IMG/VR virus record: IMGVR_UViG_3300038829_000187
Coordinates: 1 to 44,479 of that record
DNA from: a virus
Taxonomy: Duplodnaviria; Caudoviricetes
Length of the DNA: 44,479 bases
Direction: 5' to 3' (one strand)
Shown here in pieces: positions 25,110-44,479 of this stretch (the stretch's first letter is position 1; every line of letters begins with the position of its first letter). A program made the position numbers and the translations under genes. The notes under the pieces were generated by a model. It had not been told where the DNA came from. It did no database searches and saw nothing but the letters and a program-made list of their open reading frames with translations.

Positions 25110-25147
25110 CTTTATCTTCTATCCATTCCTCTTTCCCTCCCTACTCT

Positions 25148-25420: not shown

Positions 25421-25431
25421 AACGATGTTTG

Positions 25432-25462
25432 AAAGCCTCCTCATTACGAGGGGGCTTTTTTT
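25432..25462 (+). terminator. Rho-independent terminator
   Basis: AAAGCCTCCTC-loop-GAGGGGGCTTTTTTT. Confidence 0.8.
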
Positions 25463-25520
25463 GTGTACGTCAAGCACGATTGGTTGCAAGAGGTACTCAT
25501 TTCAGAGTACCTTGCACTCG

Positions 25521-25685
25521 ATGACAGCTTTCCGCCTTCAAGTGACGCTGCCGGACGCTCTTCGGGCATCGTATGAGCAACACGCGAAGGCCGTGCATGG
25601 TCTCGATCTACCAAACCTCGTGAAAATGCTCCTGCACAAGGATTATTCAGCCTACACCCCGCCCCATGAAACCGAGAATCGGTAA
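25521..25685 (+). CDS. Ribbon-helix-helix protein
   Basis: FRLQVTLPDALRASYEQHAK...DLPNLVKMLL. Confidence 0.6.
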   Translation: MTAFRLQVTLPDALRASYEQHAKAVHGLDLPNLVKMLLHKDYSAYTPPHETENR

Positions 25686-25767
25686 TCTCTTCGTCGGCCC
25701 GATGATCCTCTTTGGCACGATGGCTGTCTTTTCTTTCTTCGGTCTCTAATTCTTTCCAACTTCTCGT

Positions 25768-26100
25768 ATGTGTCCTGTCGTTATCAAGTTGACTCCGTCG
25801 ATTGGGCCGCTCGGTGCTCGTGTCGTCCTTCTGCCCGTGGAAAAAGAACAGGAAACGGCGGGGGGCATCATTATTCCGGATACCGCGAAGGGGGAGAAGC
25901 CGCAGCAAGGTACGGTCGTCGCACTTGGAAAGGGCGGCATCGGGAAGGACTGCGTGAATCCCAGCGACTTCCTGGTCGTCGGTGACAAGGTGCTTTTTAG
26001 CCGCTACGCCGGCGATGACGTAAAAGTGAAGGATGGTTCCGGCAAAGATGTGACCGTGCGAATCGTCAACATGGATGTCATCCTTGGTCTTGTTAACTAA
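25768..26100 (+). CDS. groES: Co-chaperonin GroES
   Basis: PLGARVV, ETAGGIIIPDTAK.EKPQQGTVVALG, VGDKVLFSRYAG, DVILG. Confidence 0.97.
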   Translation: MCPVVIKLTPSIGPLGARVVLLPVEKEQETAGGIIIPDTAKGEKPQQGTVVALGKGGIGKDCVNPSDFLVVGDKVLFSRYAGDDVKVKDGSGKDVTVRIVNMDVILGLVN

Positions 26101-26120
26101 TCTCCTCCCCCCATACTCCC

Positions 26121-27719: not shown

Positions 27720-27869
27720 CCCTGCTTCAGCAATGGCCCCCACGGAGCCAGAAACGGCCATCAGAATGCTGGAGGCTGTCCGCCTGGGCATTGAGGCCCT
27801 GAAGGCGATGGAGCTGCCTCCGGACGCTAGGAGAGTTGTGTAGGGGCTGGACTTCCTTGTGTCCTGACG

Positions 27870-28334
27870 ATGATTTGCGAATCATACATTGCAGGCATCC
27901 CGCTCCAAAACGGGCAACTCGCACTCTGCGACGCAGCCGATTGCCCAATCCTGTCTCAGTACACTTGGTGTCTAGGGTCTGACGGCTATGTGTCTGCCCG
28001 CATCAACGGGAAGACCGTCAGGATGCATAACCTCCTGATAGGACGAGGGATTGATCATCAAAACCGCGACAAAAGGGACAACCGCCGATGCAACCTGCGA
28101 AAGGCCAATCAGCAACAGAATGTCGCCAATGCCAGCCTAAGCCGCAGGAATAAGACTGGGTATCGAGGTGTTCATTCCACCCATCGTCCGGGAAAGCCCT
28201 ATCGTGCGAGGATCACGATATCTCGCATACAGCAGACAATTGGATACTTTGAAACCGCAGCAGAAGCCGCACTGGCCTACAACAACGCTGCAAAGGCCGC
28301 ATTCGGCGAATTCGCCTACATCAATCCCCTATGA
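27870..28334 (+). CDS. HNH-AP2 homing-type endonuclease
   Basis: RMHNLL, IDHQNRDKRDNRRCNLR, TGYRGV, IGYFETAAEAALAYN..A...FGEFA. Confidence 0.92.
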   Translation: MICESYIAGIPLQNGQLALCDAADCPILSQYTWCLGSDGYVSARINGKTVRMHNLLIGRGIDHQNRDKRDNRRCNLRKANQQQNVANASLSRRNKTGYRGVHSTHRPGKPYRARITISRIQQTIGYFETAAEAALAYNNAAKAAFGEFAYINPL

Positions 28335-29134
28335 TTGCAGAACCTTATATTGCCATCAAAGGCCCGAGAGCAGGAGAGATTGGATGGTTCGATGATTCTG
28401 ACGGATTTAATTGTAGCTCTGAAGAACCGTGGCAACCCTACGCCGACTTCGAGAGGGAAAAGTTGACAGGGCTTTGTGACAAGAACTGCGACATGATGGC
28501 AGTTGGTCTGTCCTTGCGAATGGGATACTTCCTTGGATTTGATGATGACTCGGGAATGCACGAAATCATCTCTTCGGATGAGTTGATTGATTACTGTGGA
28601 TGCAAGTATCTCAAGGACTCCGAATCCTCCCGCCTCCTCAAGCGTGCCGAGTTCTTGAAGGCTGTGTGTGAGAAGGAAAATGTTCCGTGGCTAGATTCAA
28701 TCGCATGGTGCCATTGTAAGAATCCTCGTAAAGACGGGATGCACCAGATTCAGGGGCAATGCGAGCATGAAGGATATGTCGATAGCAAGGGGTTCTGTAG
28801 AAAGTGCTGGGACGCGGGAAAGGGATGTGCGAGCTGCGATAATGAAAAGTGCCCATCGAATCGGGACTTCTGTGAATGCCCCAAGCCAGGTGAAGGCGAC
28901 TTCCGCTGCTATACCCATCCCAGGATGAAGGATGTGTACACGAAGGAGGAGGCTCTAAAAGCCTTCGCTGGCAGCGGCAAGTTCTTTGACTTCGCGGTGG
29001 GCGTGCGGACGTTTCAAGAATTGCTTCTGGACGCTCTTTCTGAGGAGGCAACGAAGCCTCGGCTCGAAGGGCAGAAGTTCAGAGCACAATGGACGGAGGA
29101 ACTCCGCAAACGCTTCCACGGAAGACACATTTAG
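28331..29134 (+). CDS. Cys-rich hypothetical protein
   Basis: ATGA overlap with the HNH gene; many CxC/CxxC motifs. Confidence 0.6.
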   Translation: MIAEPYIAIKGPRAGEIGWFDDSDGFNCSSEEPWQPYADFEREKLTGLCDKNCDMMAVGLSLRMGYFLGFDDDSGMHEIISSDELIDYCGCKYLKDSESSRLLKRAEFLKAVCEKENVPWLDSIAWCHCKNPRKDGMHQIQGQCEHEGYVDSKGFCRKCWDAGKGCASCDNEKCPSNRDFCECPKPGEGDFRCYTHPRMKDVYTKEEALKAFAGSGKFFDFAVGVRTFQELLLDALSEEATKPRLEGQKFRAQWTEELRKRFHGRHI

Positions 29135-29146
29135 TGATGCTCGTCT

Positions 29147-29410
29147 ATGACCCAGCTCCAAACAAACATCTTCGGCGGAACGGTCTTCACTGGCAAACGC
29201 ACAAACGAAGTCGAGACCCTCATTGAAAAGTACCCCCTCGCCGCAACGAACACGGGCCTGTTCTTCTTCGCAGCTCTTCGGGAGCACTGCCCGTGGGTAT
29301 CCCAGCTCCCGGAAGAACGACAGAACGAGCTTCGGGCGTATTGCCGGGGTATTGAGTCGCTTCGGCGTCGCCGGCAGGAAGGCAGGGCACATTCCCGCAA
29401 CGCACCTTGA
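29147..29410 (+). CDS. Hypothetical phage protein
   Basis: LIEKYP...IESLRRRRQ pattern; operon position. Confidence 0.55.
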   Translation: MTQLQTNIFGGTVFTGKRTNEVETLIEKYPLAATNTGLFFFAALREHCPWVSQLPEERQNELRAYCRGIESLRRRRQEGRAHSRNAP

Positions 29411-29480
29411 AAGATGTACAGGCGGCCCCGATAATGACGGCAAGTCGATTCTGGGGAGAACCTGCCGTGAAGGAGCAAAG

Positions 29481-30383
29481 GTGAAGGTTCTTGAAGATTT
29501 GCATACCAGCAAGGTGCTTGCTGGCGATTGTCTGGTCCTTTCCGAAAAGTTGCCTGACGATTCCATCGACCTAATCATCACCAGTCCGCCGTACTGGGGT
29601 CAACGCCTTTCGCAGGGCGTCGGCGTAGAGGAAGATCCGCGTCATTATGTCGATGAATTGACGAAGCGATTTCTGGCAATGAAGCGGGTCCTGAAGCCGG
29701 AAGGCCTTCTGTGGATCAACATCGGTGACTCGTACAACACACCGGTAAACTGGGGGCGGGACGACTGGCAATACAGCTCGCTTGGCCCGGATCGCAAGGG
29801 TTTCCACAAGGACAACGCCGCTTACACGAAGCCCCGTATGAAGCGTCGGCAGTTCATCGACAAAGAAGCCTCATGGCTACAGTACGGCAACCTCCTCGCG
29901 TTGCCCTATCGTCTCGTCTTGGCGTTGTGCGATGGCGGTTATCTGTTCCGGAGCGAAGTGATCTGGAAAAAGAAAAACCCCATGCCAGAGGGCAAATGCC
30001 GCCGCCCTCACCGGGGCCATGAGTCCATTTACCTTTTCGCCAAATCAGAGCGCCATGCCTTCAGCGTCAGTCCCCCCGTCAAGACCATCTGGGAGTTTGC
30101 CAACGAAGGGCTGAATGGCGTTCGTCACTATTCGAGATTTCCGACCGAGCTTCCTCGTCGGTGTATCAAAGCCTACGGCAAATGCGGTAAGGAAGTTCTC
30201 GTGCTCGACCCGTTCTCCGGTTCTGGCACGACCGGCCTTGCCTCAATTTCGCTCGGATGCACGTATCTCGGATTCGAGATTGATCCTGATCTTGTCACGG
30301 AATCCAACAAGATTCTGCGAAAAGCCACCGACAAGAAGGCAGACACCGACCTTAATTTGTTTGACGCGGCGGGGGTGGGTTAG
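29481..30383 (+). CDS. Beta-class amino (N4-C/N6-A) DNA methyltransferase
   Basis: IDLIITSPPY catalytic motif precedes VLDPFSGSGTTG (SAM binding); AAGGAG SD before the GTG at 29481. Confidence 0.93.
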   Translation: MKVLEDLHTSKVLAGDCLVLSEKLPDDSIDLIITSPPYWGQRLSQGVGVEEDPRHYVDELTKRFLAMKRVLKPEGLLWINIGDSYNTPVNWGRDDWQYSSLGPDRKGFHKDNAAYTKPRMKRRQFIDKEASWLQYGNLLALPYRLVLALCDGGYLFRSEVIWKKKNPMPEGKCRRPHRGHESIYLFAKSERHAFSVSPPVKTIWEFANEGLNGVRHYSRFPTELPRRCIKAYGKCGKEVLVLDPFSGSGTTGLASISLGCTYLGFEIDPDLVTESNKILRKATDKKADTDLNLFDAAGVG

Positions 30384-31224
30384 CGGCCTTCTTTTTCTGC
30401 CGCCACATTTGGGCGCGTGCAATGATCTCTTTTGCAAAGAGGTCCGGCTGCTGCGACAACTGTATCCGGACCACTTTCTTCCCTGATTTCGTTGTCGGAC
30501 CACTCGGCGCCGACCGGCCATTACCGCTGTATAGATTGTCGAAATCACCGTGGATCTCGACGTAGCCTCGCTTTTGGCTCGGGATTTTTGGGCTCCCAAG
30601 TTCACCACGGTTCACCAGGTCGCCGGGCGGCGGGAAGGACTTCACGTCCAGGGTCCACATTGGCGAGAAATAACCGTTCTGCATCATTGCTCGGCTACAT
30701 GGCACGTCATCAGACACGCGCTCGGCGAGACTTGCTTTCACGTGAATGCCGCCGAAAAGTTCGCCGGTATCCAGAAGATATAGCCCAACGTCCAGCTTGT
30801 CCGATCCGACGACATTTTGGATTCCCATCTCGTTTAATGCGGCAAGTTTTTTTGGCTTCCCCAGAAGCATCGTGATTTGAATGCCTTCTTTGGTGAGTAT
30901 TGGATCGTAGATCGCCTCGACGGCGATCTCCAGCGCTTCGCCCGACGCTCGTTTCCAGCTTTGCCCGGCATCTTGGTTGCGATGCTGCGGAAAGATCTCA
31001 ATGTACCGGCGCATGACGACGTGGTGCCACAAGTCACTCGCGTTTGCCGTGGGGCAAGCAGCGAGAATCGTCAAGAACGCGTCTCTGATCGCGTCGCGGT
31101 TCTTCACCGCCGTGCGTGCCAGGGCTTGATTGAAGAAATTTCCAACAGTGTCCCAATCACCCTGTGTCACTCCAGGAAGGTCGATGACAACGTTCGTTCT
31201 GTTGATCGTGGTCTGGAGCTGCAT
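30352..31224 (-). CDS. Type II restriction endonuclease, BsaWI-like
   Basis: QSWKRASGEALE, DKLDV and HVKASLAERVSDD motifs; convergent with the MTase. Confidence 0.75.
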   Translation of the reverse strand: MQLQTTINRTNVVIDLPGVTQGDWDTVGNFFNQALARTAVKNRDAIRDAFLTILAACPTANASDLWHHVVMRRYIEIFPQHRNQDAGQSWKRASGEALEIAVEAIYDPILTKEGIQITMLLGKPKKLAALNEMGIQNVVGSDKLDVGLYLLDTGELFGGIHVKASLAERVSDDVPCSRAMMQNGYFSPMWTLDVKSFPPPGDLVNRGELGSPKIPSQKRGYVEIHGDFDNLYSGNGRSAPSGPTTKSGKKVVRIQLSQQPDLFAKEIIARAQMWRQKKKAANPPPPRQTN

Positions 31225-31431
31225 TCCGCACCGTTTGTCCGGCACGGACGCAAGAGGTACGCTGTCCCCTAGCGGGATTGTGCCGGAGCCTTTGCTGGTT
31301 CCACGCTCCAACCGAGGGCCGTTCTCCCCAGATCGACCTCAGCCGGAGCAGGTACAATCCTGCTATTCTTTCGTGGACTGGCGCTTGTTTCAAGGATATA
31401 GTTTCAATTCGACGATAAATCGGGAGTTTCG

Positions 31432-31887
31432 ATGAACAAGCTAAAGGCAGCGAAAGACGACCGCGACACTCCGTCGCTCATTTTGGCCTTTACGTCCGAG
31501 TGGGAACAACCGCTAACGGACAATCGCGTTTCTGCGGTCTTTCGCAGGAAGGGTCCGGTTGATCGGGAGTTGGGCTACCTCTACGCCTACGTCGGCGCAC
31601 CGGTGTCCGCTTTGATCGGCAGGGCGAAGGTTACGGCGTACCAGCGGATGCCTGTCGAAGCGGCATTCAAGCTTGCCGACAAAGGCAAAATCAAGGCCGA
31701 TGTCCTCCGCGAATATGCTCGGGGCAAGGATGAACTCGGCGTTTTTCGACTCGGCAAGTTCGAACCTTTTTCTGCCCCGGTAAGTGCCGAGAAACTTGCC
31801 AGTGCATTCGGACTTGTTCCTCCTCAGAACTTCGTTTTTATCTCGAAGCAGGGAAAAGCTGCCCTCGATAAGCTCGCCGGTGCATGA
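31432..31887 (+). CDS. ASCH/PUA-like domain protein
   Basis: FRRKGP, YAYVGAPVSALIGRAKV and PPQNFVFI motifs. Confidence 0.7.
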   Translation: MNKLKAAKDDRDTPSLILAFTSEWEQPLTDNRVSAVFRRKGPVDRELGYLYAYVGAPVSALIGRAKVTAYQRMPVEAAFKLADKGKIKADVLREYARGKDELGVFRLGKFEPFSAPVSAEKLASAFGLVPPQNFVFISKQGKAALDKLAGA

Positions 31888-32132
31888 TGATCCTCTGCTC
31901 CTGCTGCGATGACAGACTTGACCACAGTTTCCAGCCGTGCGGCTGCGACGAAGAATATTGCACGGTCTGCGTTCGTTGCTTGCGACATTGCAGCTGCGCC
32001 GGTGGTCCGAAAGCCGACAATCCTTTCATTTGCCCACGTACCGATTTCCAGGATTCGCAAGACGGTTTGATGGACAGAAACACAGATCGGTGTAGCGTCT
32101 TGCGAGATGGGGAACCTCGAAACCTATCTTGA
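31884..32132 (+). CDS. Cys-rich small protein
   Basis: ATGA overlap; dense Cys pattern. Confidence 0.35.
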   Translation: MMILCSCCDDRLDHSFQPCGCDEEYCTVCVRCLRHCSCAGGPKADNPFICPRTDFQDSQDGLMDRNTDRCSVLRDGEPRNLS

Positions 32133-32862
32133 GGCCATCGGACAATTCGAGCTACTCACCCCGGAGCAAGAACGAAAGCTGGTCAACGAAGCCCAGGAAG
32201 GGAACATCGACTCACGAAACGCGTTGATCGAAGCGAACCTCCGCCTCGTCGTCCATATCGCAAAGCGGTTCGTCGGCTTCGGACTGGACATGGATGATCT
32301 TGTCGAGGAAGGAAACCTCGGCCTATTCCACGCCATCGACGGCTTCAAGCCTGAATTCAATACGCGCTTCACGACGTATGCGGGTCCGTGGATTCGGCAG
32401 AGCATCGGCCGGGCCTTGCATGGCGAGAGTGAGACGACCCGCAAGCCGGAATGGGTTCAAACTCTCGTTCGCAAATACAACAATGCCGTCCGCATCCTGC
32501 AAGAACCATCTTTTGACGAAGCCTGCGATTACTTGAACCTGCCGGAAAAGACACGTCGTTGCCTCAAGACGGCGCTGGAGAGGCATGTCGCCGTACAGGA
32601 AGATGCCGGGGAAGGTGACGAGAAAAGCTTCATCGAAGACCGGCACTTGTCGCCCGATGAAGAAACGGCTGCACAAGATGAGGCATCGCACTTGCATACA
32701 CAGGTTGATGCACTTCCAAGCGATGAGCGAGCGGCCATCACTTCGTACTACTTCGAAGGACATACATACGATCAGGTCGCCGAAGAATTGCACTGCTGCC
32801 GAGCGAGGGTACAGAATCTCTGCAAGAAAGCCCTGAAGTCTCTCTCCCTCCAATTGGCGTGA
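32107..32862 (+). CDS. RNA polymerase sigma-70 family factor (RpoD/RpoS-like)
   Basis: LETYL..I...LLT, ANLRLVVHIAK, DLVEEGNLGL, RFTTYA.PWIRQSI and a region 4 HTH. Confidence 0.93.
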   Translation: MGNLETYLEAIGQFELLTPEQERKLVNEAQEGNIDSRNALIEANLRLVVHIAKRFVGFGLDMDDLVEEGNLGLFHAIDGFKPEFNTRFTTYAGPWIRQSIGRALHGESETTRKPEWVQTLVRKYNNAVRILQEPSFDEACDYLNLPEKTRRCLKTALERHVAVQEDAGEGDEKSFIEDRHLSPDEETAAQDEASHLHTQVDALPSDERAAITSYYFEGHTYDQVAEELHCCRARVQNLCKKALKSLSLQLA

Positions 32863-33032
32863 CGCTCGCCGAAGACCTCGTTGCGGCGAATGAAGAGCAG
32901 CAAAAACTCTGGAAGAAGGCGGCCCTTGAAGGGAAAACATTTCAGGAAATGGAATGGGAAATCAAGGAACAAACGCGAGAGCCATTCTTGAGAATCATTG
33001 AAAAGCACAATTGGGTCGATCAGGTACAATAG
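32859..33032 (+). CDS. Small hypothetical protein (57 aa)
   Basis: Hand-translated; GTGA overlap with the sigma gene; fills the gap. Confidence 0.5.
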   Translation: MTLAEDLVAANEEQQKLWKKAALEGKTFQEMEWEIKEQTREPFLRIIEKHNWVDQVQ

Positions 33033-33036
33033 GGCA

Positions 33037-33861
33037 ATGCCCGGTCTGGAAGCCAGGAACGGACACCGGCCCAAGCTGAATGTGCTGCCCGATGGCGGTG
33101 TCGAAGTTCCCGATGGCTTCGTGCAGCTCTCCGACGATCTCCTCCGCTACAACATCAGTGGCGCCCATCGCTATCTTCATCTTCCGACCCTGACCTGGTG
33201 CAAGGGCCTCACGACGATCCTCAAGAACATGCCGATGGACGAAGGCCTGATGCGGTACGTCGCGAACCAGGGGGGGTACGACCAGTATCGGGAGAACCTC
33301 TCGAAAGCCGGCAAACGCGGGACGCGGGTCCACTTGAGCATCGGGGATCTGCTCGACGGCAAGACGATCCGGCGCCGGCAGTTCACGGACGAAGAATGGA
33401 ACCACCTCTGCACCTGGGTCCAGTTTTTCAAGGATCACCTGCTCGACACCTTCGCGATTGAACAGCCCATCGTGGACACGCGGCGCAAGGTCGCTACCTG
33501 CATCGACTGGCGGGGCGACTTCAACGGAGTCCACACGTCGGTCAACTGGAAGACCAGCTCCGCGATATACGAATCAGCTTGCGTGCAAGCCAACGAAGAA
33601 GCGTGGATCTACAACGACGCCGGCCAATTCGACGAGCTGGGGCCTGTCGAGAAATGGGCGGTGGTCCGGACCGGGACTCGCCACAAGTGCGGTTACGAAA
33701 TCGTCGCAGAGCCCTTGGATAAGGCCAAACACGAGTATTTCAATCACCTGCTCGCGATCGACGAATACCACGATCCGAACGGCATTCCGATCTTCCCGAA
33801 GGAACTCCCCGACACGCTCAAGCTCCCCGATTCCCCTCCGCTCAATGGCAAGCCCCACTGA
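33037..33861 (+). CDS. PD-(D/E)XK (RecB/Cas4-like) phage nuclease
   Basis: RGTRVH, IEQPI, CIDW and VNWKTS..IY....VQ motifs; TACAAT 6 nt before the ATG. Confidence 0.75.
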   Translation: MPGLEARNGHRPKLNVLPDGGVEVPDGFVQLSDDLLRYNISGAHRYLHLPTLTWCKGLTTILKNMPMDEGLMRYVANQGGYDQYRENLSKAGKRGTRVHLSIGDLLDGKTIRRRQFTDEEWNHLCTWVQFFKDHLLDTFAIEQPIVDTRRKVATCIDWRGDFNGVHTSVNWKTSSAIYESACVQANEEAWIYNDAGQFDELGPVEKWAVVRTGTRHKCGYEIVAEPLDKAKHEYFNHLLAIDEYHDPNGIPIFPKELPDTLKLPDSPPLNGKPH

Positions 33862-34030
33862 ACTCTTCCAAGCCACGATCCCCCAGGTCATGCGCGTCGC
33901 CTCCATGCCCGACAGCGACACGAAAACCGGCTTGATCCAAGCCTCGGAAGAAACGATCGACGAATGGTTCGCCGGCGGTGAAATCACTGCGGAGCAACGC
34001 CGGCAGCTTCTGGACTTGCTGCGGCGATAG
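33845..34030 (+). CDS. Small hypothetical protein
   Basis: Overlaps the nuclease stop; GEITAEQRRQLL motif. Confidence 0.45.
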   Translation: MASPTELFQATIPQVMRVASMPDSDTKTGLIQASEETIDEWFAGGEITAEQRRQLLDLLRR

Positions 34031-34283
34031 TGTAGCGATCGTATCGCTCCGCCAACCACCATTGCAGATTCTTGATTGCCTCGTTCAGCTTCACACACTC
34101 CTGCTCAACTCGATATTTGCATTCGGCCTGAAGGGTGAAGATCGCCTTGCGGTCCTCCGTCCTTTCCTTTCGCTTGTCGTAGTCGGCTCCGATCGCGTTC
34201 ACTCGCTCATCCGCTTTTTCGACCAGAATCCTGTAGAACTCTTCGTAGATCACTGCCGATTCAAGCTGCGGCCTGAGTCCCAT
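33984..34283 (-). CDS. Hypothetical coiled-coil protein
   Basis: Coupled to 34261..34431. Confidence 0.5.
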   Translation of the reverse strand: MGLRPQLESAVIYEEFYRILVEKADERVNAIGADYDKRKERTEDRKAIFTLQAECKYRVEQECVKLNEAIKNLQWWLAERYDRYTIAAASPEAAGVAPQ

Positions 34284-34431
34284 GGAGCAAACGCTGGTAG
34301 CGGAGCACCTCGGCATCCGAAAGGTAAAGAAGGTTTCTGCGGACAGTGTCGAGCATGATTCTTTTCACGTCAGTCGGGCATTCTTCGTGAGTCTCAAGCC
34401 AGACGATCAGGGCGTCCGTCTCCTCGATCAT
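34261..34431 (-). CDS. Small hypothetical protein
   Basis: ATG 6 nt after a minus-strand TATACT box. Confidence 0.45.
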   Translation of the reverse strand: MIEETDALIVWLETHEECPTDVKRIMLDTVRRNLLYLSDAEVLRYQRLLHGTQAAA

Positions 34432-34453
34432 GGAAGGAGTATACTCCTCGCCG

Positions 34454-35308
34454 ATGGAACGCCAGAAAGGGGCGGAAAGCAACGGCAAGGCCGACAAGGT
34501 TCCGCTCTGGCAGAAGCTTTACACGAAAGACGCGTACATGGAGTTAGCTAGGACAGTCAGCTACACCGGCATTTCCATCGAAGACATTCGCGAGAAGATC
34601 AAGCCGCTAGAGCAACGCTTCGGCAGAGAACTGATGGTGAAGGCGGCGGATGACCTGGTCCAAGTGAATGACACGTGGGTCCGCTTGAAGACCGAAGCGC
34701 GTCATCTCTGCTGGCAACTCCTTGGACCACCACCCGAGCATCCTGACTACGTGAAGAAGGAAGCGCCTGCCGAACCGCCGCCGAAACCGAACAAGAAGCC
34801 GAGAAACAAAAAGAAGGAGTTTGTTGCGCCAAACACTCCGAATGTAAACAAACAAGCGACTCCGCTGATGCAGCAATGGAAAGAAGCCAAGGAACGGCAC
34901 AAGGACATGCTTTTGCTATTCCGGGTCGGGGACTTCTACGAACTTTTTGATTCCGACGCGAGGAGCGGTGCCAGGATCTTGGGGCTCACACTCACCAGCA
35001 GGGACAAGACGATCGACATGGCGGGCTTCCCGCACCATCAGCTTGAGACCTATCTGCACAAACTCCTCAAGGAAGGCGTCCGGGTTGCGGTCTGCGATCA
35101 GGTGGATTCGGCCAATGGGAAGGCGGTCAAGCGGGAAGTGACGCGGGTGGAAACGCCAGGCTCGATGATTGAAAAAGTTGGCGACGACGCTCTTTACGCC
35201 AGGGAGTACGAACTCCGTCAGATTCTCGACCGAGACAAAACGAAGGAGCAAATGGACGAAGCCATGGCACTCAAAGCTGAGATTCGCCGGCGAGCGAAGG
35301 CTTCGTGA
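34454..35308 (+). CDS. Protein with a stand-alone MutS domain I (mismatch-binding)
   Basis: TPLMQQWKEAK, LLLFRVGDFYELF, LGLTLTSR, MAGFPHH, VAVCDQV and REVTRVETPG; no ATPase domain. Confidence 0.9.
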   Translation: MERQKGAESNGKADKVPLWQKLYTKDAYMELARTVSYTGISIEDIREKIKPLEQRFGRELMVKAADDLVQVNDTWVRLKTEARHLCWQLLGPPPEHPDYVKKEAPAEPPPKPNKKPRNKKKEFVAPNTPNVNKQATPLMQQWKEAKERHKDMLLLFRVGDFYELFDSDARSGARILGLTLTSRDKTIDMAGFPHHQLETYLHKLLKEGVRVAVCDQVDSANGKAVKREVTRVETPGSMIEKVGDDALYAREYELRQILDRDKTKEQMDEAMALKAEIRRRAKAS

Positions 35309-35318
35309 TCCAAGTCTC

Positions 35319-35486
35319 CTACCACCCGGCAAACCAGACAATCAGCCACGCCACAAGCCAGAAGGGCGCCAAAGCAAGACAAAGGACGATGATCCCCACC
35401 CCGGTTCTATGGCCGAGCTGCTGGGCGCTTCGGCTGCGTCCGACCCACCGGAAGTAGTCCCTCAGAAGTTCGCGGATGAAGCTCAT
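35319..35486 (-). CDS. Small membrane protein (55 aa)
   Basis: Hand-translated MSFIRELLRDYFRW...GIIVLCLALAPFWLVAWLIVW. Confidence 0.45.
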   Translation of the reverse strand: MSFIRELLRDYFRWVGRSRSAQQLGHRTGVGIIVLCLALAPFWLVAWLIVWFAGW

Positions 35487-35523
35487 CCGGGCATTTTATT
35501 TGCTTGCCCGGATTCCACGGCAA

Positions 35524-36714
35524 CTATCCAAAAACCCGCGTGATGGCCTCCTTCATGACTGTCGGGTACAGGTGACGGTAGCGGCGGCGTTGTTGCTCGG
35601 ACTGATGCCCGACGATTTCATCAATCACCCTCTGATCTACTCCCTCGCTTGCCAGGGCGGAGATAAACGAATGGCGTAGGACGTGGAAGCCGCGGAGGAC
35701 AGACCATTTCGAGTCGGCCACTGTTCGTCGGAAATGGTCATGGGCTTCGTCTTTGGTGACCGCGGCTGGGGTTTCCCGCTTCGTCTTGCTGCGGGAGACG
35801 TGCCCTTGGCAGAACAAGAAAGGGCTGTCTGGCCGAACAGCGAACCAAAGACGGAGGGCCTCGGCGAGTTTCGGGGTGATTGGAGCGGTGCGAGACGAGG
35901 TCTTTCCGCGAACCCTTTTCTTCTCGCGGATCGTCAGGACACCTGCTTTCAAGTCCACGTCGCCGACCAGACAGCGGAGCATTTCGCTTCGACGGGCGCC
36001 TGTATACGCGGCAAAGGCAACCATCGGGTACACCCAGGGCAGCGTTCCGTTTCCCTGAACGTAGAGCAGGAATTCTTCCATCTCGGCACGAGTCAGGTAC
36101 AGCGATTCCCAAAGCGGTTCGGGAGCGGATTCAATTTCAGCGAATGTGCGAAACGGTTCCTTTTCATCCTCCTTCGGGAAGCGAAGGCCCTTTCCCGGAA
36201 AAGTGCCCTTGAGAACGCCGGCATGCACCCCCCAGTTCCAGCAAGCCCGGATGCTCGCCATTTCTTTCTTGAGGGTCACAGCGGACACTTTCTTGCGGCG
36301 TCGGTCAACATGCTCCTGCAAGTGCAGGAGGGTGAGGGTTTGAATGCGGAATCGTTCTCCCAGGCTTTCGACGCAGTGGTTCAGGTGCGTACGGGCGGTG
36401 CCGAGGGAGCTTTCCTCGATCGTGCCATTGGCGTGGGTTTGTAAATAGTGATCCACCAGCTGCCGGGCGGTGATCGTCTCAGGCCTGGCGGAAACGACGG
36501 GGGCTTTGCCGCCACTCGCGACAAAATCCTCCAGGCTGACGCCATCGGGAACGGTCAGGCGCCCACGCTCGATCAGGGCCAGCGTTTCGTCAACTTCAGT
36601 CCCCTTCGCGAGGGCTTGGGCTTCGGTCACGTCCCCAACGGTGAAGTAGTGTCTACGTCCCTGAAAGCGGAACGTGCAGTAGAAAGCCTCGCCTTTCCTG
36701 CGAATACCGGCCAT
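35524..36714 (-). CDS. int: Tyrosine integrase
   Basis: TGARRSE (R), K, HVLRH (HxxR), VGH and Y catalytic residues; N-terminal arm-binding domain; AGGAG SD. Confidence 0.95.
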   Translation of the reverse strand: MAGIRRKGEAFYCTFRFQGRRHYFTVGDVTEAQALAKGTEVDETLALIERGRLTVPDGVSLEDFVASGGKAPVVSARPETITARQLVDHYLQTHANGTIEESSLGTARTHLNHCVESLGERFRIQTLTLLHLQEHVDRRRKKVSAVTLKKEMASIRACWNWGVHAGVLKGTFPGKGLRFPKEDEKEPFRTFAEIESAPEPLWESLYLTRAEMEEFLLYVQGNGTLPWVYPMVAFAAYTGARRSEMLRCLVGDVDLKAGVLTIREKKRVRGKTSSRTAPITPKLAEALRLWFAVRPDSPFLFCQGHVSRSKTKRETPAAVTKDEAHDHFRRTVADSKWSVLRGFHVLRHSFISALASEGVDQRVIDEIVGHQSEQQRRRYRHLYPTVMKEAITRVFG

Positions 36715-36730
36715 AGGAGTCTCCTTTCGG

Positions 36731-37042
36731 AAACGCCCTGTAGATTCCCTACTGGCGGAAGATTGGCGGAAAACCCGTCTTCCAAGAGAAAAGGGCTTAC
36801 AGCATTCTATGCCGTAAACCCTTGAAAAGAAGCGAGTGCCGGAGACAGGACTTGAACCTGCACTGTATTGCTACAACCAGGCCCTCAACCTAAAGCCTGT
36901 CCACTTCTCTTTCAGGGTATCTACAGGGATGTTTCCTACAAGTGATTGGAATGAGGGCTCTTTCCATCAAGAGCCCATTGCAATCACATTGTAGGCACAG
37001 GGAGACGAAAGGGGCAATGCTGGCGGAAATTTGGCGGAAGAA
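36731..37042. mobile_element. attP region: arm-type repeats and hairpins around a tRNA-derived core
   Basis: Paired TGGCGGAA direct repeats at 36753-36771 and 37021-37039; inverted CCCTGTAGAT/ATCTACAGGG at 36736 and 36919; hairpins at 36791-36823 and 36935-36995. Confidence 0.8.
36837..36891 (-). tRNA. 3' half of tRNA-Leu(GAG) (attP core, not a functional tRNA)
   Basis: Minus strand AGG-TT-GAG-GG-CCTGG, long variable arm, GCAGG-TTCAAGT-CCTGT T-arm, CTCCGGCA acceptor half; no D-arm or 5' half. Confidence 0.85.
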
Positions 37043-37049
37043 AGACACG

Positions 37050-37322
37050 CTAGGATGGGCCGTAACTGCGGAGCCGTTGTAGCTCCTCGTGGCTGATGAG
37101 CCACTCCCCGCCCTTCCCGCGTCCGCAAGCTTTCTTTATAGCTTTTACCCTCCCCAAGCGGCAATACTCCCGCACGGTGTACTCGGCCTTACCAATTATC
37201 TCGGCAATCTCAGCGGTACTATACATCGCCTTGACCGTCTTTTCCTGGATCAAGGTGGCGAGCATTTGCTCGATGCGGTCGAGCCGTTCAGGAAGGTCGG
37301 GCCAATCATTCTTGGGTTGCAT
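37050..37322 (-). CDS. Excisionase-like HTH protein
   Basis: YSTAEIAEIIGKAEYTVREYCRLGRV...WLISHEEL; lies on the far side of attP from the integrase. Confidence 0.85.
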   Translation of the reverse strand: MQPKNDWPDLPERLDRIEQMLATLIQEKTVKAMYSTAEIAEIIGKAEYTVREYCRLGRVKAIKKACGRGKGGEWLISHEELQRLRSYGPS

Positions 37323-37484
37323 GGGTGCTCCTAGACTCCGTTTCTGGATCGTTCTTCTGGCTCAGCAGGGCGTGGAAGTGATCGAGGCAAAGATCGCCGT
37401 TCACCACTCCGCGGACGGTGATGACTCTTTTCTTTTCGGAATTATCCCCTTTACAAACCACGGCGAGGGGGGTAGTCTCAGGGC

Positions 37485-38399
37485 ATGACTACTCCACACC
37501 TCACCGAACTCTGGGAAATGACAGAAGAGGAAGCCCGTACCTACCTTGAAAGTGTCCGGTGGCCGGACGGTGCTGTCTGCCCTCACTGTGAATCGAAGAA
37601 GGTAACGTACTTGAACGGGAAGGCCACCCGCGCCGGAGTGTACAAGTGCAAAGATTGCCGGAAGCAATTCACGGTCACGGTGAACACTATTTTCCATCGT
37701 TCCCACATTCCGCTCAAAAAGTGGGTCATTGCCTTCCACATGCTGTGCAGTTCTAAGAAAGGAATTTCCGCATTGCAGTTACAGAGGAACCTTAAACTGG
37801 AATCGTACGAGTCTGCATGGCACATGGCGCACCGTATCCGCTATGCAATGACAGAAGGCCCGATGGCAACACTTCTGAAAGGAACCGTGGAAGTGGATGA
37901 AACGTACATAGGCGGAAAGCCGAGGATAAAAGGAGTGAGCAAGAGAGGACGCGGGACAAAGAAAACTCCTGTCCTCGCTCTAGTGTCCCGTGATGGTTCT
38001 GCAAATTCTTTCCCCGTAGAACGGGTGAGCGGGAAAACATTGAAAACTGCGATCAGAGAAAACGTGGAGAGCAGTGCAAGAATCCTCACCGATGAACTAC
38101 CCTCTTACGGCGGGATCGGGAAAGAGTTTGAGGGAGGACATGAAACCGTGAACCATGGCCGCAAGGAATACGCCCGCGGGGATGTAAACACGAACTCAGT
38201 TGAATCATACTTCGCCCTATTAAAGAGGGGCGTACACGGAACGTTCCACCACATTTCTAAGCGACACTTGCCCCGCTACTGTGAAGAGTTCGCCTTCCGA
38301 TGGTCACACAGAAAAGAGAGTGACAGTGAGAGGGCGTTGGCTGCCTTACTTCAAACCAGCGGAAAGAGGCTAACCTATCGAGATATGATTGCCGGATGA
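37485..38399 (+). CDS. IS1595 (ISXO2-like) DDE transposase
   Basis: RWPDG..CPHC Zn ribbon, VEVDETYIGG, ILTDE, VNH..EY, TNSVESYF, YCEEFAFR. Confidence 0.96.
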   Translation: MTTPHLTELWEMTEEEARTYLESVRWPDGAVCPHCESKKVTYLNGKATRAGVYKCKDCRKQFTVTVNTIFHRSHIPLKKWVIAFHMLCSSKKGISALQLQRNLKLESYESAWHMAHRIRYAMTEGPMATLLKGTVEVDETYIGGKPRIKGVSKRGRGTKKTPVLALVSRDGSANSFPVERVSGKTLKTAIRENVESSARILTDELPSYGGIGKEFEGGHETVNHGRKEYARGDVNTNSVESYFALLKRGVHGTFHHISKRHLPRYCEEFAFRWSHRKESDSERALAALLQTSGKRLTYRDMIAG

Positions 38400-38523
38400 T
38401 GGAGTTTCGGAAAAACCCATCATCATAATGGGATTTTGAAAAAGTCCTTGCATAAGGAAATGGGGCGGTCTATGATCGAGTAGTCCTTGCAAGACGACTC
38501 TTTCATTCCTACCCCAAGTTTCC

Positions 38524-38904
38524 ATGACCAGCGTAAACAAACGGCTTCTACAAGTCAAGATTAAGCAGCGCGACGATGCGAAAGGAAAGTTCGATGAACT
38601 GGAAAGGGCTGTACAAGCACTAGTTATCGCTGCTGAGATCGAGGAAAGCGAAGGAATACAAGAAAACAGTCCTAAGATTTATCAACCGAAAAATAGTTGG
38701 AAGCAGATGGGAAAAGAGCGAACGAAAAAAGTAACCGAGATGCTCAGCGCTGCCGCCGGGGAACTCCATTTTAACTATCTGGCAAAACAACTCGGCCTAA
38801 AACCAATTACTATGAAAGACTGGATGCTTTCGCAGATAGAAAGGAAAAAGGATCGCTGCCCGTGGAAAGTGGGCAAGAATAAGTCGTACTACGTTCTCCG
38901 GTAG
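38524..38904 (+). CDS. IS passenger, possible winged-helix protein
   Basis: Coiled coil, then ELHFNYLAKQLGLKPITMKDWM; C-rich leader. Confidence 0.55.
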   Translation: MTSVNKRLLQVKIKQRDDAKGKFDELERAVQALVIAAEIEESEGIQENSPKIYQPKNSWKQMGKERTKKVTEMLSAAAGELHFNYLAKQLGLKPITMKDWMLSQIERKKDRCPWKVGKNKSYYVLR

Positions 38905-38931
38905 GAGAACATTTCCCGCTCTTTCAAAGGA

Positions 38932-39042
38932 CGTATTGATCCCCTCGGAGAGTTAGCAATCGGGAAAGGCCTCGCTGTTAACGAGTAACCTTTCCGCTAG
39001 CAACGATTGGACTGACGAGTCACCTCCGAGGGGATCTATGCG
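38932..39042 (+). ncRNA. Candidate structured RNA inside the IS
   Basis: Outer stem GATCCCCTCGGAG/CTCCGAGGGGATC; inner GGAAAGG/CCTTTCC and GACT/AGTC stems. Strand not established. Confidence 0.45.
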
Positions 39043-39139
39043 CCCCGATTGTAACACGCCGTATCCATAGAGTATACTGCCCTTCGATGCCTCCAGATAG
39101 TAATAATCGCCGAAAGAAAGAACTGAAGCCCATTTCCCT

Positions 39140-39436
39140 ATGGCCTCTCACTCCGAAAGATGCTCTGAGAGCGGCAATGCAGACACAGTTACCGAAACCG
39201 AAGAAGCACAAAAAGCACTGAAGATTTTTCCGAGCACCTGTGATACGATGATGTCCATGGCAGTTGCTGACAATAAGGCAATAAGTTGGGCGTTTCTCGT
39301 GGGGTTCGTTGTCTTTATAGGTACGGCTTTTTTGCCACTGTTCCCGGCAGACATGTCCTTTGGGACTTCTTTCATTATTTCGCTTGTCGCTTGTTTCGCG
39401 GTAGCCATCCCTGTTTATAACATCGCTAAAAAGTAA
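39140..39436 (+). CDS. IS passenger, two-TM membrane protein
   Basis: Two hydrophobic helices; C-rich leader. Confidence 0.55.
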   Translation: MASHSERCSESGNADTVTETEEAQKALKIFPSTCDTMMSMAVADNKAISWAFLVGFVVFIGTAFLPLFPADMSFGTSFIISLVACFAVAIPVYNIAKK

Positions 39437-39587
39437 CCTGTTCATGGTTTGTTAAGGAGACAAATCCGAACTATTTTGTTTGCGGGGTGAAAATTGATGG
39501 GGCGCTACTTCGAACCTTTCAATCGGAAAAAGGACAACAACTCCAAAAAGATTGTCAAACTTTACCGAATTCACATTCTGGGCAATG

Positions 39588-39618
39588 AAAAAAAGCCCCT
39601 CCCTTGCGAGGAGGGGCT
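39588..39618 (-). terminator. Rho-independent terminator
   Basis: Minus strand AGCCCCTCC-loop-GGAGGGGCTTTTTTT after the 39644..39973 gene. Confidence 0.8.
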
Positions 39619-39643
39619 GCCCCTTCACCGGGCATCCTGCCCG

Positions 39644-39973
39644 TTACTGCTGAGGTTCCTCGCCCCCTTGCTCCTCTGCCTGGGACGCCAACCACTGGTA
39701 CGCCTGGGCCAAACCGATGGAAGCGGCTGGCATGGCGTCCTCGGCGATGAAGTTCGTCCACTCCCGCTTGTCGCCGGACTGGAACGACTGCTGCAACGTC
39801 ACCGTGTACGTCTCGAAGTCACCGTTTTTGCCTTTGTTGACCCGTTCCCAGACCGTGACCGAGAGAGTGCCCCCTCGGACGCGGTAGTACAGGCGGTGAA
39901 CGACCTTCGACTTGTTTTCCTGCTTGGGCGGGGCTTGGGTTGCCCCATTACCGTTTCGTTGGAATCGACGCAT
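39644..39973 (-). CDS. Putative ssDNA-binding (PC4/SpoVG-like) protein
   Basis: LSVTVWE...YTVTLQQSF...W.....D......LAQAYQW pattern; acidic tail; AGGAG SD. Confidence 0.55.
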   Translation of the reverse strand: MRRFQRNGNGATQAPPKQENKSKVVHRLYYRVRGGTLSVTVWERVNKGKNGDFETYTVTLQQSFQSGDKREWTNFIAEDAMPAASIGLAQAYQWLASQAEEQGGEEPQQ

Positions 39974-40012
39974 GCGATACTCCTTGGTTGAGACTAGCGT
40001 TTCCTGCCGTGG

Positions 40013-40780
40013 CTACGTTGCCATGGCAAAGTCAGGCTCTTCTTGCGTGGCGACCTGAGAGAACAGGTCTGACAGCCTAATCGTGAGGTGGGCAAACTGT
40101 TGCGGGTTGGTCTTTTGCCGGTCGGCCAGAATTGTCGTGTGAGCATTGTAGAGGCTCCACAAGGTGCGAGGCTCGAACTCTTCGTAACTCGGTTTCTCCC
40201 ATTCCGCGATGACGCGGGGCAGTAGCTGTGTGCTGATGATTTCCTTCCGGTAGGCCCGGAGGATCAGCGACTCGGCTACCACCTGGGTGATTTCCGTGTT
40301 CTGAAGGCGTCCGATCCTCTCCCCTTCGGCCTCTTGGAATGACACGAGATTCTGGATGGCCATGGTGATGGCCTCATGAAATCGGATTTGCCCATTCCTC
40401 GTGTGCTTTCTGCGGACGTTGATCAGGTCGGCCCGAAAGGCCATGTTCGAACATACGAACACACGATGGCCGGCCACTAGCCCTAGCGGGATTGACCGAT
40501 CTTGGGCTGACCTGATTCCGACACAAAGGTTGACGCCTGTTGCCACGGACGTGGAAAGATCCAGAGTCCCAAAGAAGCGATCGTCGTGGCGGGACAGTGC
40601 AAGCTCGTACTTCTCAACGCGGAAGTTTGCTTGCTCCAGCAGAGACTTGCAATCCCGAAACACCTGGTGGTGTGGAACGGGAAAGTACGTCTCGGTGGGT
40701 GGCGGACAGGGGACAGCTTCAAGTGTCGCCAAGTCCACCTTGCGTGCGCCGTTGTAGGCGACCAAAGCGGATGTGCTCAT
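40013..40780 (-). CDS. DUF932-family protein
   Basis: PVPHHQV, RFFGTLDL, GIRSAQD, G.RVFVCSNMAF, RRKHT and RTLWSLYNAHT motifs; GAGGAGG SD. Confidence 0.85.
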   Translation of the reverse strand: MSTSALVAYNGARKVDLATLEAVPCPPPTETYFPVPHHQVFRDCKSLLEQANFRVEKYELALSRHDDRFFGTLDLSTSVATGVNLCVGIRSAQDRSIPLGLVAGHRVFVCSNMAFRADLINVRRKHTRNGQIRFHEAITMAIQNLVSFQEAEGERIGRLQNTEITQVVAESLILRAYRKEIISTQLLPRVIAEWEKPSYEEFEPRTLWSLYNAHTTILADRQKTNPQQFAHLTIRLSDLFSQVATQEEPDFAMAT

Positions 40781-40868
40781 ACTCCTCCTCGATGGTGTGA
40801 AAGGGACGATGCAGCAGCTCCTTCGCTGTTGCATGAGGAGGATAGACCTGTGATGAGCAGAGGAGCAA

Positions 40869-41189
40869 TTAGCTCTTCATGAGGCTATATGCCGCCGTAG
40901 ACTCAAAGAACACCGTGAAGGAGAGCAAAAGGGTCTGCGTGTCGAAGGTCGGCGGAATGCCAGTCTTGTACCAGACGGAGAGAAGGCTGAGTCCGACGCA
41001 GAGAAAGGCGACGAAACAGCGAATGGCCATCGTTCGGCCGGGAGCGACGGAATCGCATAACCACTGAAAGAACTTCAGCTTGCCAAGCCCTGGAATTCTT
41101 TTCGCTTGCTTCAATGCTTCGGTGATGGCAGTGATGACGGTCGCCATGGTGATGGTGTAGCCGCTGAATTCGGCAATCGACATGTCCAT
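40869..41189 (-). CDS. Holin-like membrane protein
   Basis: VITAITEALK motif and 2-3 TM segments; last gene of the lysis cassette. Confidence 0.55.
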   Translation of the reverse strand: MDMSIAEFSGYTITMATVITAITEALKQAKRIPGLGKLKFFQWLCDSVAPGRTMAIRCFVAFLCVGLSLLSVWYKTGIPPTFDTQTLLLSFTVFFESTAAYSLMKS

Positions 41190-41215
41190 ATAAGAAGGGG
41201 GGAGGGGGGGTAAAA

Positions 41216-41827
41216 CTATGAACGCAAGCGGTCTTCGAGCCGCTTGATAACGAAATTGATCAGGCCCACGGTGGCTGGGTCTGTTGTGTTTCCCAATCGC
41301 CGGTAGAGTCCGCGAAGGCGAATCTCAGGGGGGATGGGCTTGTATTGCGTCGGCTGGTCGATTGCGGGGATCTCACCTCGGATGAGTCGGGCGAGCTGGA
41401 AGAGCGGCGTATCGACCGCAACATTGAATTTTTGGAGGTCACTGACAAGTGACTTTGTGTAGTTCAGCGGGTCATTCCTGTCCTCTGCGGGGGCATAAAT
41501 GGAGATGTAGTCGAGGAACGCGAGGTCGAGATAGTCCTTGCGGTGCTTGTCCATGTATCGCTTCACTGATCCTGCTTGCCCGGTGATTTTCAGCCGAATG
41601 TCATCCATGAGTGCCCGAAGGCCGACCTCGTACGATGGGAACTTTGAAAAGCTGCCAAGGCCGGGCACAGCTCCGTAGTAGACCCTCTGGCCGACGGTGT
41701 AGCGAAGGTTGCCTGGGTTGTTGTTGAGGAAGGCAACGGTTCCATTTGGAAACTGCGGGTGTTGGCCGGGGGCGAAGAAGCCTTCATGCTTTTGGTGGGC
41801 CAGTGCTAGTTGACGGAGAAAACTCAT
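41216..41827 (-). CDS. Putative endolysin (NNPGNL lysozyme-like family)
   Basis: HEG, NNNPGNLR, FPSYEVGLRAL and YAPAED.N...Y motifs; lies between two holin-like genes. Confidence 0.7.
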   Translation of the reverse strand: MSFLRQLALAHQKHEGFFAPGQHPQFPNGTVAFLNNNPGNLRYTVGQRVYYGAVPGLGSFSKFPSYEVGLRALMDDIRLKITGQAGSVKRYMDKHRKDYLDLAFLDYISIYAPAEDRNDPLNYTKSLVSDLQKFNVAVDTPLFQLARLIRGEIPAIDQPTQYKPIPPEIRLRGLYRRLGNTTDPATVGLINFVIKRLEDRLRS

Positions 41828-42186
41828 TGATTATCGTTGTCAGAGGGAACCGGGAAGATGGAAGAGACGTGGGCGTTCGGTTCGATCTTTCGCTTGACGG
41901 CGAAGAGAACCATGTCGAGAGCTTGGGTGCCGATGTAGCCGAAGATGCCAGCGGAGATGTAGGTCCACAGTCGTTCGGTCGTGGCGGTGGCGGCGAGGAG
42001 CCCGCCCATCAGTCCACAGAAGCTCGAAATGAACGTGTTGGCTGCAAGCAGGAAGATGAAACGACGTTTGCTGACAGTCTGGCTTCCGCGAATGACGGTC
42101 GAAACGTACTTGACGGCCCCTCCGAATCCAGCGAGGAATCCCCAGGTGACAACCTTCTCGACGGTGGCGGGGTCATGGTCGATCAT
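41824..42186 (-). CDS. Holin (LydA-like)
   Basis: GFGGAVKY, FISSFCGLMGG and AGIFGYIGTQALD; three TM segments. Confidence 0.8.
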   Translation of the reverse strand: MIDHDPATVEKVVTWGFLAGFGGAVKYVSTVIRGSQTVSKRRFIFLLAANTFISSFCGLMGGLLAATATTERLWTYISAGIFGYIGTQALDMVLFAVKRKIEPNAHVSSIFPVPSDNDNQ

Positions 42187-44120: not shown

Positions 44121-44479
44121 TAGGAGTGGTAGGACATGGGATCAACGTACTCGCCGTCCACTTTGATGCGATAGTCGATGTGTGGGCCTGTGGAGTTGCC
44201 CGTGTTCCCAGAGAAACCAATGACCTGGCCCTTCTCGATCTCGGAACCAACCTCCAGGCCCTCGGCGACCTTGGAAAGATGTGAGAGGCGATGGATCGCA
44301 CCTTTTGCATCCATGATGATGAGTGTTCTCCCCCAGCCTCCGTCCCAGCCTTGTTGAATGACCCTGCCTGACACGAACGACGGTACGCGGGTGCCTTCCG
44401 GCATGGCGATGTCGATGCCTCGATGCTGGCCCTTCCAGGCTTTGACGACGGAGGCCGGATAGATGGATGTGTCGATGGC
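44120..44479 (-). CDS. C-terminal M23 (LytM) peptidase domain of the origin-spanning ejection protein
   Basis: HRGIDIAMPEGT (HxxxD), SHL and GNTGNSTGPHIDY motifs typical of Peptidase_M23. Confidence 0.9.
   Translation of the reverse strand, partial: AIDTSIYPASVVKAWKGQHRGIDIAMPEGTRVPSFVSGRVIQQGWDGGWGRTLIIMDAKGAIHRLSHLSKVAEGLEVGSEIEKGQVIGFSGNTGNSTGPHIDYRIKVDGEYVDPMSYHS
44353..44479. repeat. Terminal direct repeat, copy 2 (circular overlap)
   Basis: Identical to 1-127. A length of 127 nt matches a common assembler k-mer. Confidence 0.97.

Follow-up and report, generated by a model that had tools for sequence, protein, structure and literature searches.

How does a tailed phage whose backbone bears the marks of one bacterial phylum come to carry an integration unit that matches a tRNA gene of another? 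The question is raised by the complete IMG/VR record IMGVR_UViG_3300038829_000187 (Duplodnaviria; Caudoviricetes), whose 44,479 nt are here called the window. A sequence-only reading had described it as a two-phylum chimera, in which a block at 29481..40800 with a Planctomycetota-like integration and early module interrupts a genome of Candidate Phyla Radiation (CPR) type. It proposed either a phage with its lysogenic stage in a planctomycete and its virion production in, or directed against, that cell's CPR episymbiont or, alternatively, a CPR phage that captured the integrative element of its host's host; the latter proposal fits the present results best. The window ends in a 127-nt terminal repeat (1..127, copy at 44353-44479) and is therefore read as the assembly of a circle with a 44,352-bp unit; another record (L039), of length 44,352 and in another rotation, differs by one mismatch over the 21,041 nt compared. 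The sequence derives from groundwater and is present in two runs (X1, X2) of one sample. It was not found in a third run of the same study, and run X3, from another sample, gave no matching contigs and is uninformative.

Two provenances in one genome

A distinct block does exist where the earlier reading placed it, with limits that are more likely at about 29407-40868 (~11.5 kb). It is 82% coding and lies at the point where a rightward early operon and a leftward late operon converge. The remainder, referred to as the backbone (1-29410 and 40869 to the end; 32.9 kb), is 92% coding, and GC content stays flat at about 55-56% along the genome, with no step at the block. As had been claimed, the two parts differ in their translation signals. 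With curated starts, Shine-Dalgarno-like (SD-like) sites precede 7 of 16 genes in the block and 2 of 40 in the backbone (Mann-Whitney test on dG, p=8e-5), and under a blind first-ATG rule the counts are 4/14 and 3/32. The same blind rule yields 34-43% in planctomycete-type gene sets and 5-14% in three viral relatives of the backbone (L040, 2/16; G302, 5/37; G766, 2/40). In the available part of one survey, Peribacter riflensis is reported to have an SD in 7% of its genes and to lack the anti-SD core, with a figure of 48% for Planctomycetia (PMC10783764). The SD scarcity of the backbone matches Peribacter but is common to other CPR lineages and not specific to Peribacteria.

Codon usage of the block also differs from that of the backbone, the observed value being reached in 1 of 500 gene permutations. 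The ratio of observed to expected GCGC sites is 0.56 in the block (29 sites in 11.4 kb) and 0.19 in the backbone (24 sites in 33.0 kb; p=9e-6), compared with 0.07 in L040 and 0.65-0.95 in eleven planctomycete sets or loci. Since the block lies near the planctomycete loci in this respect and far from the backbone, its capture would appear to be recent. Avoidance of GCGC is strong in the backbone and in L040, pointing to a putative GCGC restriction system in their host lineage; G302 avoids CCGG instead (0.19). The 4-mer profile of the block correlates at 0.53 with the backbone and at 0.32-0.54 with planctomycete loci, which leaves donor and backbone unseparated by this measure.

Homology agrees with the division. 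The planctomycete affinity proposed for five block genes is borne out, homologues being found at 75-78% identity for the integrase, at most 64% for the excisionase, 33-40% for the sigma factor, 55-70% for the MutS_I fusion and 31-52% for DUF932; except for the integrase and the att core, the block-gene searches were confined to planctomycetes and show presence there, not absence elsewhere. On the backbone side, the GroEL (26121-27719, plus strand) has 30 organism-named proteins among its best 120 matches (68-74% identity), of which 26 belong to Peribacteria/Peregrinibacteria (69-74%), three to 'Patescibacteria group' and one to Kiritimatiellales, and it is 48-54% identical to the GroEL of five planctomycete genomes. 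It is the sole host-derived gene tested as closest to Peribacteria, and a GroEL scan of IMG/VR found only relatives at 52-54%. The Peribacteria resemblance claimed by the sequence-only reading is borne out for GroEL and stays putative for GroES and for the fibre proteins, the fibre having only viral look-alikes under 0.9 (Atlas). The 44-kb phage carries GroES and the Peribacteria-type GroEL as a pair (25768-27719), and the GroEL lacks what we take to be the usual GGM-rich tail. The genome is of two provenances, with a Peribacteria-type backbone and a planctomycete-type block.

The integration unit and its putative donor

The predicted integration unit is intact in appearance, with excisionase, arm pair, core, arm pair and integrase following each other in this order. 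The tyrosine integrase (35524..36714, minus strand) falls in a Gemmataceae clade: all six organism-named proteins among its best 120 matches are from Gemmataceae or Isosphaeraceae, and it nests among proteins of these families in a quick tree. Its catalytic-type residues R241, H344-x-x-R347, H370 and Y379 are invariant in 11 aligned sequences, and the protein is about 10 aa shorter than its relatives in one loop. The attP-type site (36753..37039) has its core at 36835-36891 and 8-nt arm repeats at 36753/36764 and 37021/37032. The arm motif occurs five times genome-wide, four of these in the core-flanking pairs, and in most close relatives an integrase-side pair lies at about -61/-50 of the integrase start. 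The excisionase-like HTH_17 protein (37050..37322, minus strand) is up to 64% identical to proteins encoded beside planctomycete integrases, and the block has, as integrative and conjugative or integrative mobilisable elements do, an integrase with an excisionase at a tRNA 3' end.

The core has the same sequence as the 3' part of tRNA-Leu(GAG) in a member of the Planctomycetia, and the integrase family at large adjoins tRNA-Leu genes. Among 185,579 species genomes the 56-nt core has an exact match in one, a Planctomycetia metagenome-assembled genome (G001), at the 3' end of its tRNA-Leu(GAG), and no other of 201 Planctomycetia carries it within 3 mismatches; Rfam and ARAGORN reported nothing at the partial tRNA of the window. 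Because the arms on both sides of the core are identical, the site would represent the excised form, attP. Chromosomal junctions between tandem elements (L124, L132) resemble an attP, but their arms are unlike on the two sides. The attL/attR junctions for which the sequence-only reading had suggested a search were not found in the contigs of the two runs, and contigs drop rare forms. A loose end at 36835 was considered as an attR and rejected, as it goes with a core of another organism that differs at four positions. In run X1, the tRNA-Leu end of this second organism departs from the core at 4 positions and adjoins a similar flank of element type; on this evidence, a related planctomycete-like cell is present in the same sample.

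At the DNA level the block finds matches in 132 of 151 genomes of G001's family, mostly at 65-78% and higher over the core; the parts matched include the methyltransferase, restriction enzyme, sigma factor, MutS_I fusion, integrase, core and DUF932. The closest whole element is a region of about 44 kb in genome G291 (C2:171875-216223; L045-L047), extending from an integrase of 71% to an excisionase of 61% identity and encoding a TrwC relaxase, a coupling protein, ParA, DUF932 and sigma-like proteins, with no match to a virion family. It also carries the defence genes ThiF/DUF6791/DUF6527 and AbiEi, and its att site is not a tRNA-Leu despite the 71%-identical integrase. Two planctomycete-like viral records (G776, G777) share the same tRNA-Leu att start and have a 40% integrase. 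As the G291 element has mobilisation genes and the records that share the att site are viral, the donor may have been either a mobilisable element or a prophage. In IMG/VR, no relative was found with a close integrase profile, nor by single-protein scans with the capsid, integrase and exonuclease, and plasmid and phage collections gave nothing useful.

Proposed capture and the rival explanations

The join is very probably that of a natural recombinant. Coverage across the junctions, proposed earlier as a check, speaks for a continuous molecule: contig depth is flat over 25001-44479 (4.2-6.6 in X1; 4.4-6.9 in X2, except one holed bin at 2.6), the left junction is bridged without branching in both runs (contigs 27881-30275 in X1 and 29329-30498 in X2), and the right junction is bridged by a 1,354-nt contig of X2 (39781-41134). 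In the contigs of the two runs no joint was seen that would represent a block-less phage or a free block, neither junction has a loose donor flank, and a second assembly has the same circle length. An artefact would require two foreign joins, neither of which cut into the genes or leaders at the donor's ends; the leader of DUF932 stays similar to those of its planctomycete orthologues as far as the last late stop codon and, by our estimate for a block that is 82% coding, random breaks would leave both donor ends non-coding about 3 times in 100. Simple mis-assembly is unlikely on these grounds, and a chimera of any kind, whether from assembly or from library preparation or amplification, seems improbable, even though all data come from a single sample whose library method is not on record, the X1 assembly has a 6-nt hole at 40844-40849 that leaves only 19 nt on the block side of the right junction, and the L039 comparison covers regions outside the block.

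As to how the ends were joined, a single crossover of an 11.4-kb circle at an 8-nt direct repeat (29471/40861) was considered and not accepted, because the methyltransferase promoter lies left of the repeat, because the phage terminator hairpin that it proposes is insignificant (z -0.8/-1.8), and because such a repeat has, by our estimate, a chance of a few percent. An 11-nt repeat (29465/40913) was likewise not accepted; it falls inside a backbone gene.

We give about an even chance to the reading that this is a circular tailed phage of Peribacteria which recently captured, via cell contact, a planctomycete attP-region block that it carries as cargo. The donor would be a tRNA-Leu integrative element, either mobilisable or a prophage, that had been excised from a Gemmataceae-like planctomycete as a circle bearing attP. 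Such a circle could have entered a planctomycete-attached Peribacteria cell by conjugation, DNA uptake or injection by a host phage, delivery being easiest between attached cells; entry of a host prophage into a CPR episymbiont has been reported for Xhp1 and TM7x (PMC13578794). A matching attB being presumably missing there, the circle would have stayed in the attP form until illegitimate recombination placed about 7 kb and 4 kb from either side of attP between two convergent phage operons. Complete relatives of the backbone measure 41,343 and 44,670 bp and, among ten portal relatives looked up, four lie on contigs of 42.2-47.6 kb and six on shorter fragments. The backbone alone is a quarter short of such lengths, which suggests that the block took the place of, or compensated for, about 11 kb and probably kept the genome within the 41-48 kb range of its relatives. 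The phage would still multiply in Peribacteria from an origin served by the host's DnaA, with the integration unit idle or rarely used and a restriction-methylation pair as the likeliest useful cargo. The relatives' lack of a tyrosine integrase (PF00589 is missing from all four related viral records, which include two distant complete ones) argues for a lineage that does not integrate, and the two-part layout, for which a search in related phages had been suggested, does not recur in these records. Nor is the block the early module of the phage, as had been suggested: divergent early operons and an oriC-like site belong to the backbone itself, and no recognisable primase, replicase or other replication gene was found in the block.

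Several observations weigh against this reading. CheckV estimates the completeness of the record at 60%, and all read evidence comes from one sample, as contigs rather than reads. The host-side genomes searched were those of planctomycetes, which leaves the Peribacteria host and the missing attB as inferences. No donor element with the block's gene order was found, and nine block proteins together with the integrase have no other member at 90%. Seven block genes hold 14 GCGC sites where 31 are expected (0.45, vs 0.63-1.09 in their orthologues), and the integrase branch (0.34 in the quick tree) is about twice the median of 0.17; the stay in the phage may therefore not have been very short. The block is also undecayed, with open reading frames (ORFs), 82% coding density, and a 56-nt core and four arm repeats that are all perfect, a condition that fits function as well as recency.

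Made specific, the headline proposal of the sequence-only reading is that the captured integrase places the phage as a prophage at the planctomycete tRNA-Leu(GAG), virions being produced in the Peribacteria episymbiont of that cell or directed against it. The complete-looking unit with its perfect core, an attP placed as in lambdoid phages between the early operon and the lysis genes, the retention of both inward block promoters directly at backbone stop codons and the mild GCGC loss of the block genes are all compatible with it; the DnaA-box origin could work in either host, and weak infection of a CPR episymbiont by a host prophage that binds to it has been described (PMC13578794). Searches that might have given direct support came back near-empty, however. 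The only core branch in X1 is a 56-nt record with the four mismatches of the other organism's tRNA end; 301 Planctomycetota genomes yielded a single weak match, of 93 residues, to a capsid profile, and 91 planctomycete genomes none to a portal profile; and the spacer check, proposed earlier, found no spacer-like match to the virion half in 101 genomes, with three chance-like matches of 84-88%. The relatives lack integrases, and neither a clear repressor nor a second receptor-binding set was recognised; divergent small genes at 22473/22547 and an HTH gene (24702-25109) are present, with no match to a repressor family. Crude pattern scans of the backbone revealed no lipobox or o-spanin candidate. 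The genomes searched are incomplete and the donor species is not among them, and we therefore regard two-host propagation as unlikely but worth some weight. A former Peribacteria phage that now infects the planctomycete alone, having acquired its lysogeny module there and retaining its backbone marks as relics, is a distinctly improbable alternative. About half of Planctomycetia genes are reported to lack an SD, so that SD-less phage genes would be readable; recombination inside a planctomycete would explain access to attP DNA, and G776 and G777 show that planctomycete-like viruses use the same tRNA-Leu att with a 40% integrase. Against it, the GCGC avoidance and C-rich leaders of the backbone are undiluted, the spanin expected for a diderm host has no candidate in the crude scan, and no related prophage was seen in the planctomycete genomes searched (301 for the capsid, 91 for the portal). 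Capture might also have involved no partnership, if Peribacteria took up free planctomycete element DNA, directly or via an intermediate, and the phage then recombined with it. All compositional and homology results would fit, and cross-phylum transfer into Patescibacteria from varied donors has been reported (PMC12455944); yet free DNA would be mostly chromosomal and a rare attP junction better fits delivery of an excised element, and the tandem junctions that mimic attP (L124, L132) have unlike arms where those of the window are identical. We consider this quite unlikely.

Genes of the block and backbone, and known parallels

The gene content claimed for the block stands in most respects (integrase-attP-excisionase unit, sigma factor, MutS_I fusion, DUF932) and is larger than stated: to it belong an exonuclease, an ASCH/EVE-like gene, an IS1595 transposase and a pair of Type II restriction and methylation genes. 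The left junction zone (29407..29480, plus strand) contains a sigma70-like promoter, the best of the region (10 of 12) and overlapping the stop codon of the 87-aa backbone gene, followed by the SD of an N4/N6 DNA methyltransferase (29481..30383, plus strand) that is full length relative to its closest orthologues (53-67% in genomes of G001's family). Convergent with it is a BsaWI-like Type II restriction endonuclease (30352..31224, minus strand), and the same pair occurs in 4 genomes of that family (64-67%). The sequence WCCGGW, which we take to be the BsaWI site, has an observed/expected ratio of 0.83 in the backbone; it is not avoided, and there is therefore no sign of long coexistence with the restriction enzyme. 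An operon-like run (31432..35308, plus strand) encodes proteins of 151 aa (ASCH/EVE-like, by our own label) and 82 aa, the sigma-70 factor (32107-32862), a 57-aa protein, the exonuclease (33037-33861), for which no homologue was found in 251 genomes of G291's order, a 61-aa protein and the MutS_I fusion (34430/34454-35308). The latter joins MutS domain I to a planctomycete N-terminal domain that G453 likewise has near DUF932; MutS_I proteins that stand alone are frequent in viral clusters. The IS1595-family transposase (37485-38399) and two ORFs of low third-position GC occupy 37485..39436 (plus strand), where no element ends or terminal repeats were found. The transposase has a 303/304-identical twin on an 11,872-bp contig, which could be another assembly or a free form. 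At the right end (39594..40868, minus strand) lie DUF932 (40013-40780), whose planctomycete-type leader reaches the stop of the backbone gene at 40869 and whose relatives occur in 37 of 251 genomes of G291's order, a 109-aa ORF and an intrinsic terminator (39594-39618). The earlier SSB-like label of the 109-aa ORF found no Pfam, PHROG or NCBIfam match. No relaxase, coupling protein or type IV secretion system component was detected among the 61 ORFs scanned. A phage satellite is not indicated either, as the block lacks a primase or replicase and the whole record has its own virion genes.

The virion module of the backbone (2..18841, minus strand) encodes the small and large terminase subunits TerS and TerL, recognised by family searches, a portal (13230-15452, labelled from position and size, with no family match), a capsid protein (10599-11642, with a weak Pfam match below the cut-off), an SU10-type adaptor and fibre-like proteins; its gene order, including capsid and portal, is common to L040, G302 and G766. 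Relatives of the capsid protein at 73-76% are known from P0242 and P0243/L040. It is followed by the oriC-like site (18821..19091), with the most AT-rich 60-mers of the genome and seven 9-mers resembling what we take to be the DnaA-box motif; the largest cluster in 100 shuffles had four. The closest relative, L040, has four boxes (L040 230-309) and an AT-rich stretch upstream of TerS, and the distant relative G766 has a DnaD-like gene in the corresponding place. As family searches of the ORFs recognised no initiator in the backbone and the box cluster is echoed in L040, replication likely proceeds through the host's DnaA, which suggests a phage clade dependent on it. A metallophosphoesterase gene (19352-20209), on the strand opposite to its neighbours, adjoins the site, and L040 carries a TIR-domain gene (790-1917) between its box cluster and TerS. 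The early region (22333..29410) consists of two divergent operons: a 46-aa gene (22333-22473, minus strand), which we take to be RHH-like, faces away from rightward genes for amidase-3D, HTH, GroES, GroEL and HNH proteins, the last of the series being the 87-aa ORF (29147-29410). The end of the late operon (40869..44404, minus strand) encodes an M23 domain, a 645-aa protein, a LydA-type holin, a lysozyme-like protein and a 106-aa membrane protein.

The hosts of Peribacteria are poorly known, and the one hint found is that Planctomycetes were co-enriched with CPR bacteria including a Peribacter, a symbiosis that the authors, in the available text, describe as not established (Jaffe et al., 10.1101/2021.09.01.458585). 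The phage adds sequence-level evidence that Peribacteria and planctomycete DNA met in one cell. Capture of the block where two bacteria touch, which is likely, would point to planctomycetes as hosts of Peribacteria, with the Planctomycetia lineage that has the exact tRNA-Leu(GAG) end (G001) as a testable partner, and foreign attP sites in CPR phages could serve as a screen for CPR hosts. If the unit is used, a single phage would divide its life cycle between two phyla, one being the host and the other its episymbiont, and might even serve the planctomycete as a weapon against the epibiont.

There is nothing out of the ordinary in mosaic phages or in the capture of mobile elements; what is unusual is an attP unit for a foreign phylum in a virion genome of CPR type. 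A literature search (supplements and subscription papers lay outside it) found no report of such a genome carrying a whole attP unit for another phylum's tRNA, and no paper on a DnaA-box CPR phage or on spacer-based CPR host links. The backbone resembles the unclassified, SD-poor, podovirus-like phages L040, G302 and G766 in the order of portal, scaffold, capsid, adaptor and following virion genes and, in the two complete ones, in the convergent early/late layout and a length of 41-45 kb; unlike the window, these have no tyrosine integrase and none of the block genes. With the Planctomycetia tRNA-Leu elements (the G291 element and the temperate-phage-like G777) the block shares the integrase clade, excisionase, arm repeats at -61/-50 and tRNA-Leu core, as well as a gene pool that includes DUF932, sigma factors and restriction genes, but it has no relaxase, coupling protein or replication gene and lies in attP form inside a foreign phage. 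Lambdoid temperate phages combine an int-attP-xis unit with morons, and the window is similar in placing its attP unit between early and lysis operons and in having cargo with its own promoter and terminator; here, however, the integration unit and the virion genes point to different phyla, and integration is a prediction. Integrated virophages of the mavirus type are comparable in concept alone, as viruses kept in a host's genome that act against that host's parasite; they belong to an unrelated virus class, and in the present case an integrated copy and a protective effect are conjectural. An epibiont and its host have been found to have separate phages (Bouderka et al., in the available part). 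The nearest published parallel is prophage Xhp1 of Schaalia odontolytica XH001 acting on Nanosynbacter lyticus TM7x (PMC13578794, likewise in the part available), in which a host and its CPR episymbiont share phage DNA and which offers a route for a host's excised element into a CPR cell. Xhp1 is a phage of the host that infects the CPR partner to a limited extent, whereas here a virion backbone of CPR type is combined with an integration region that alone is of host type.

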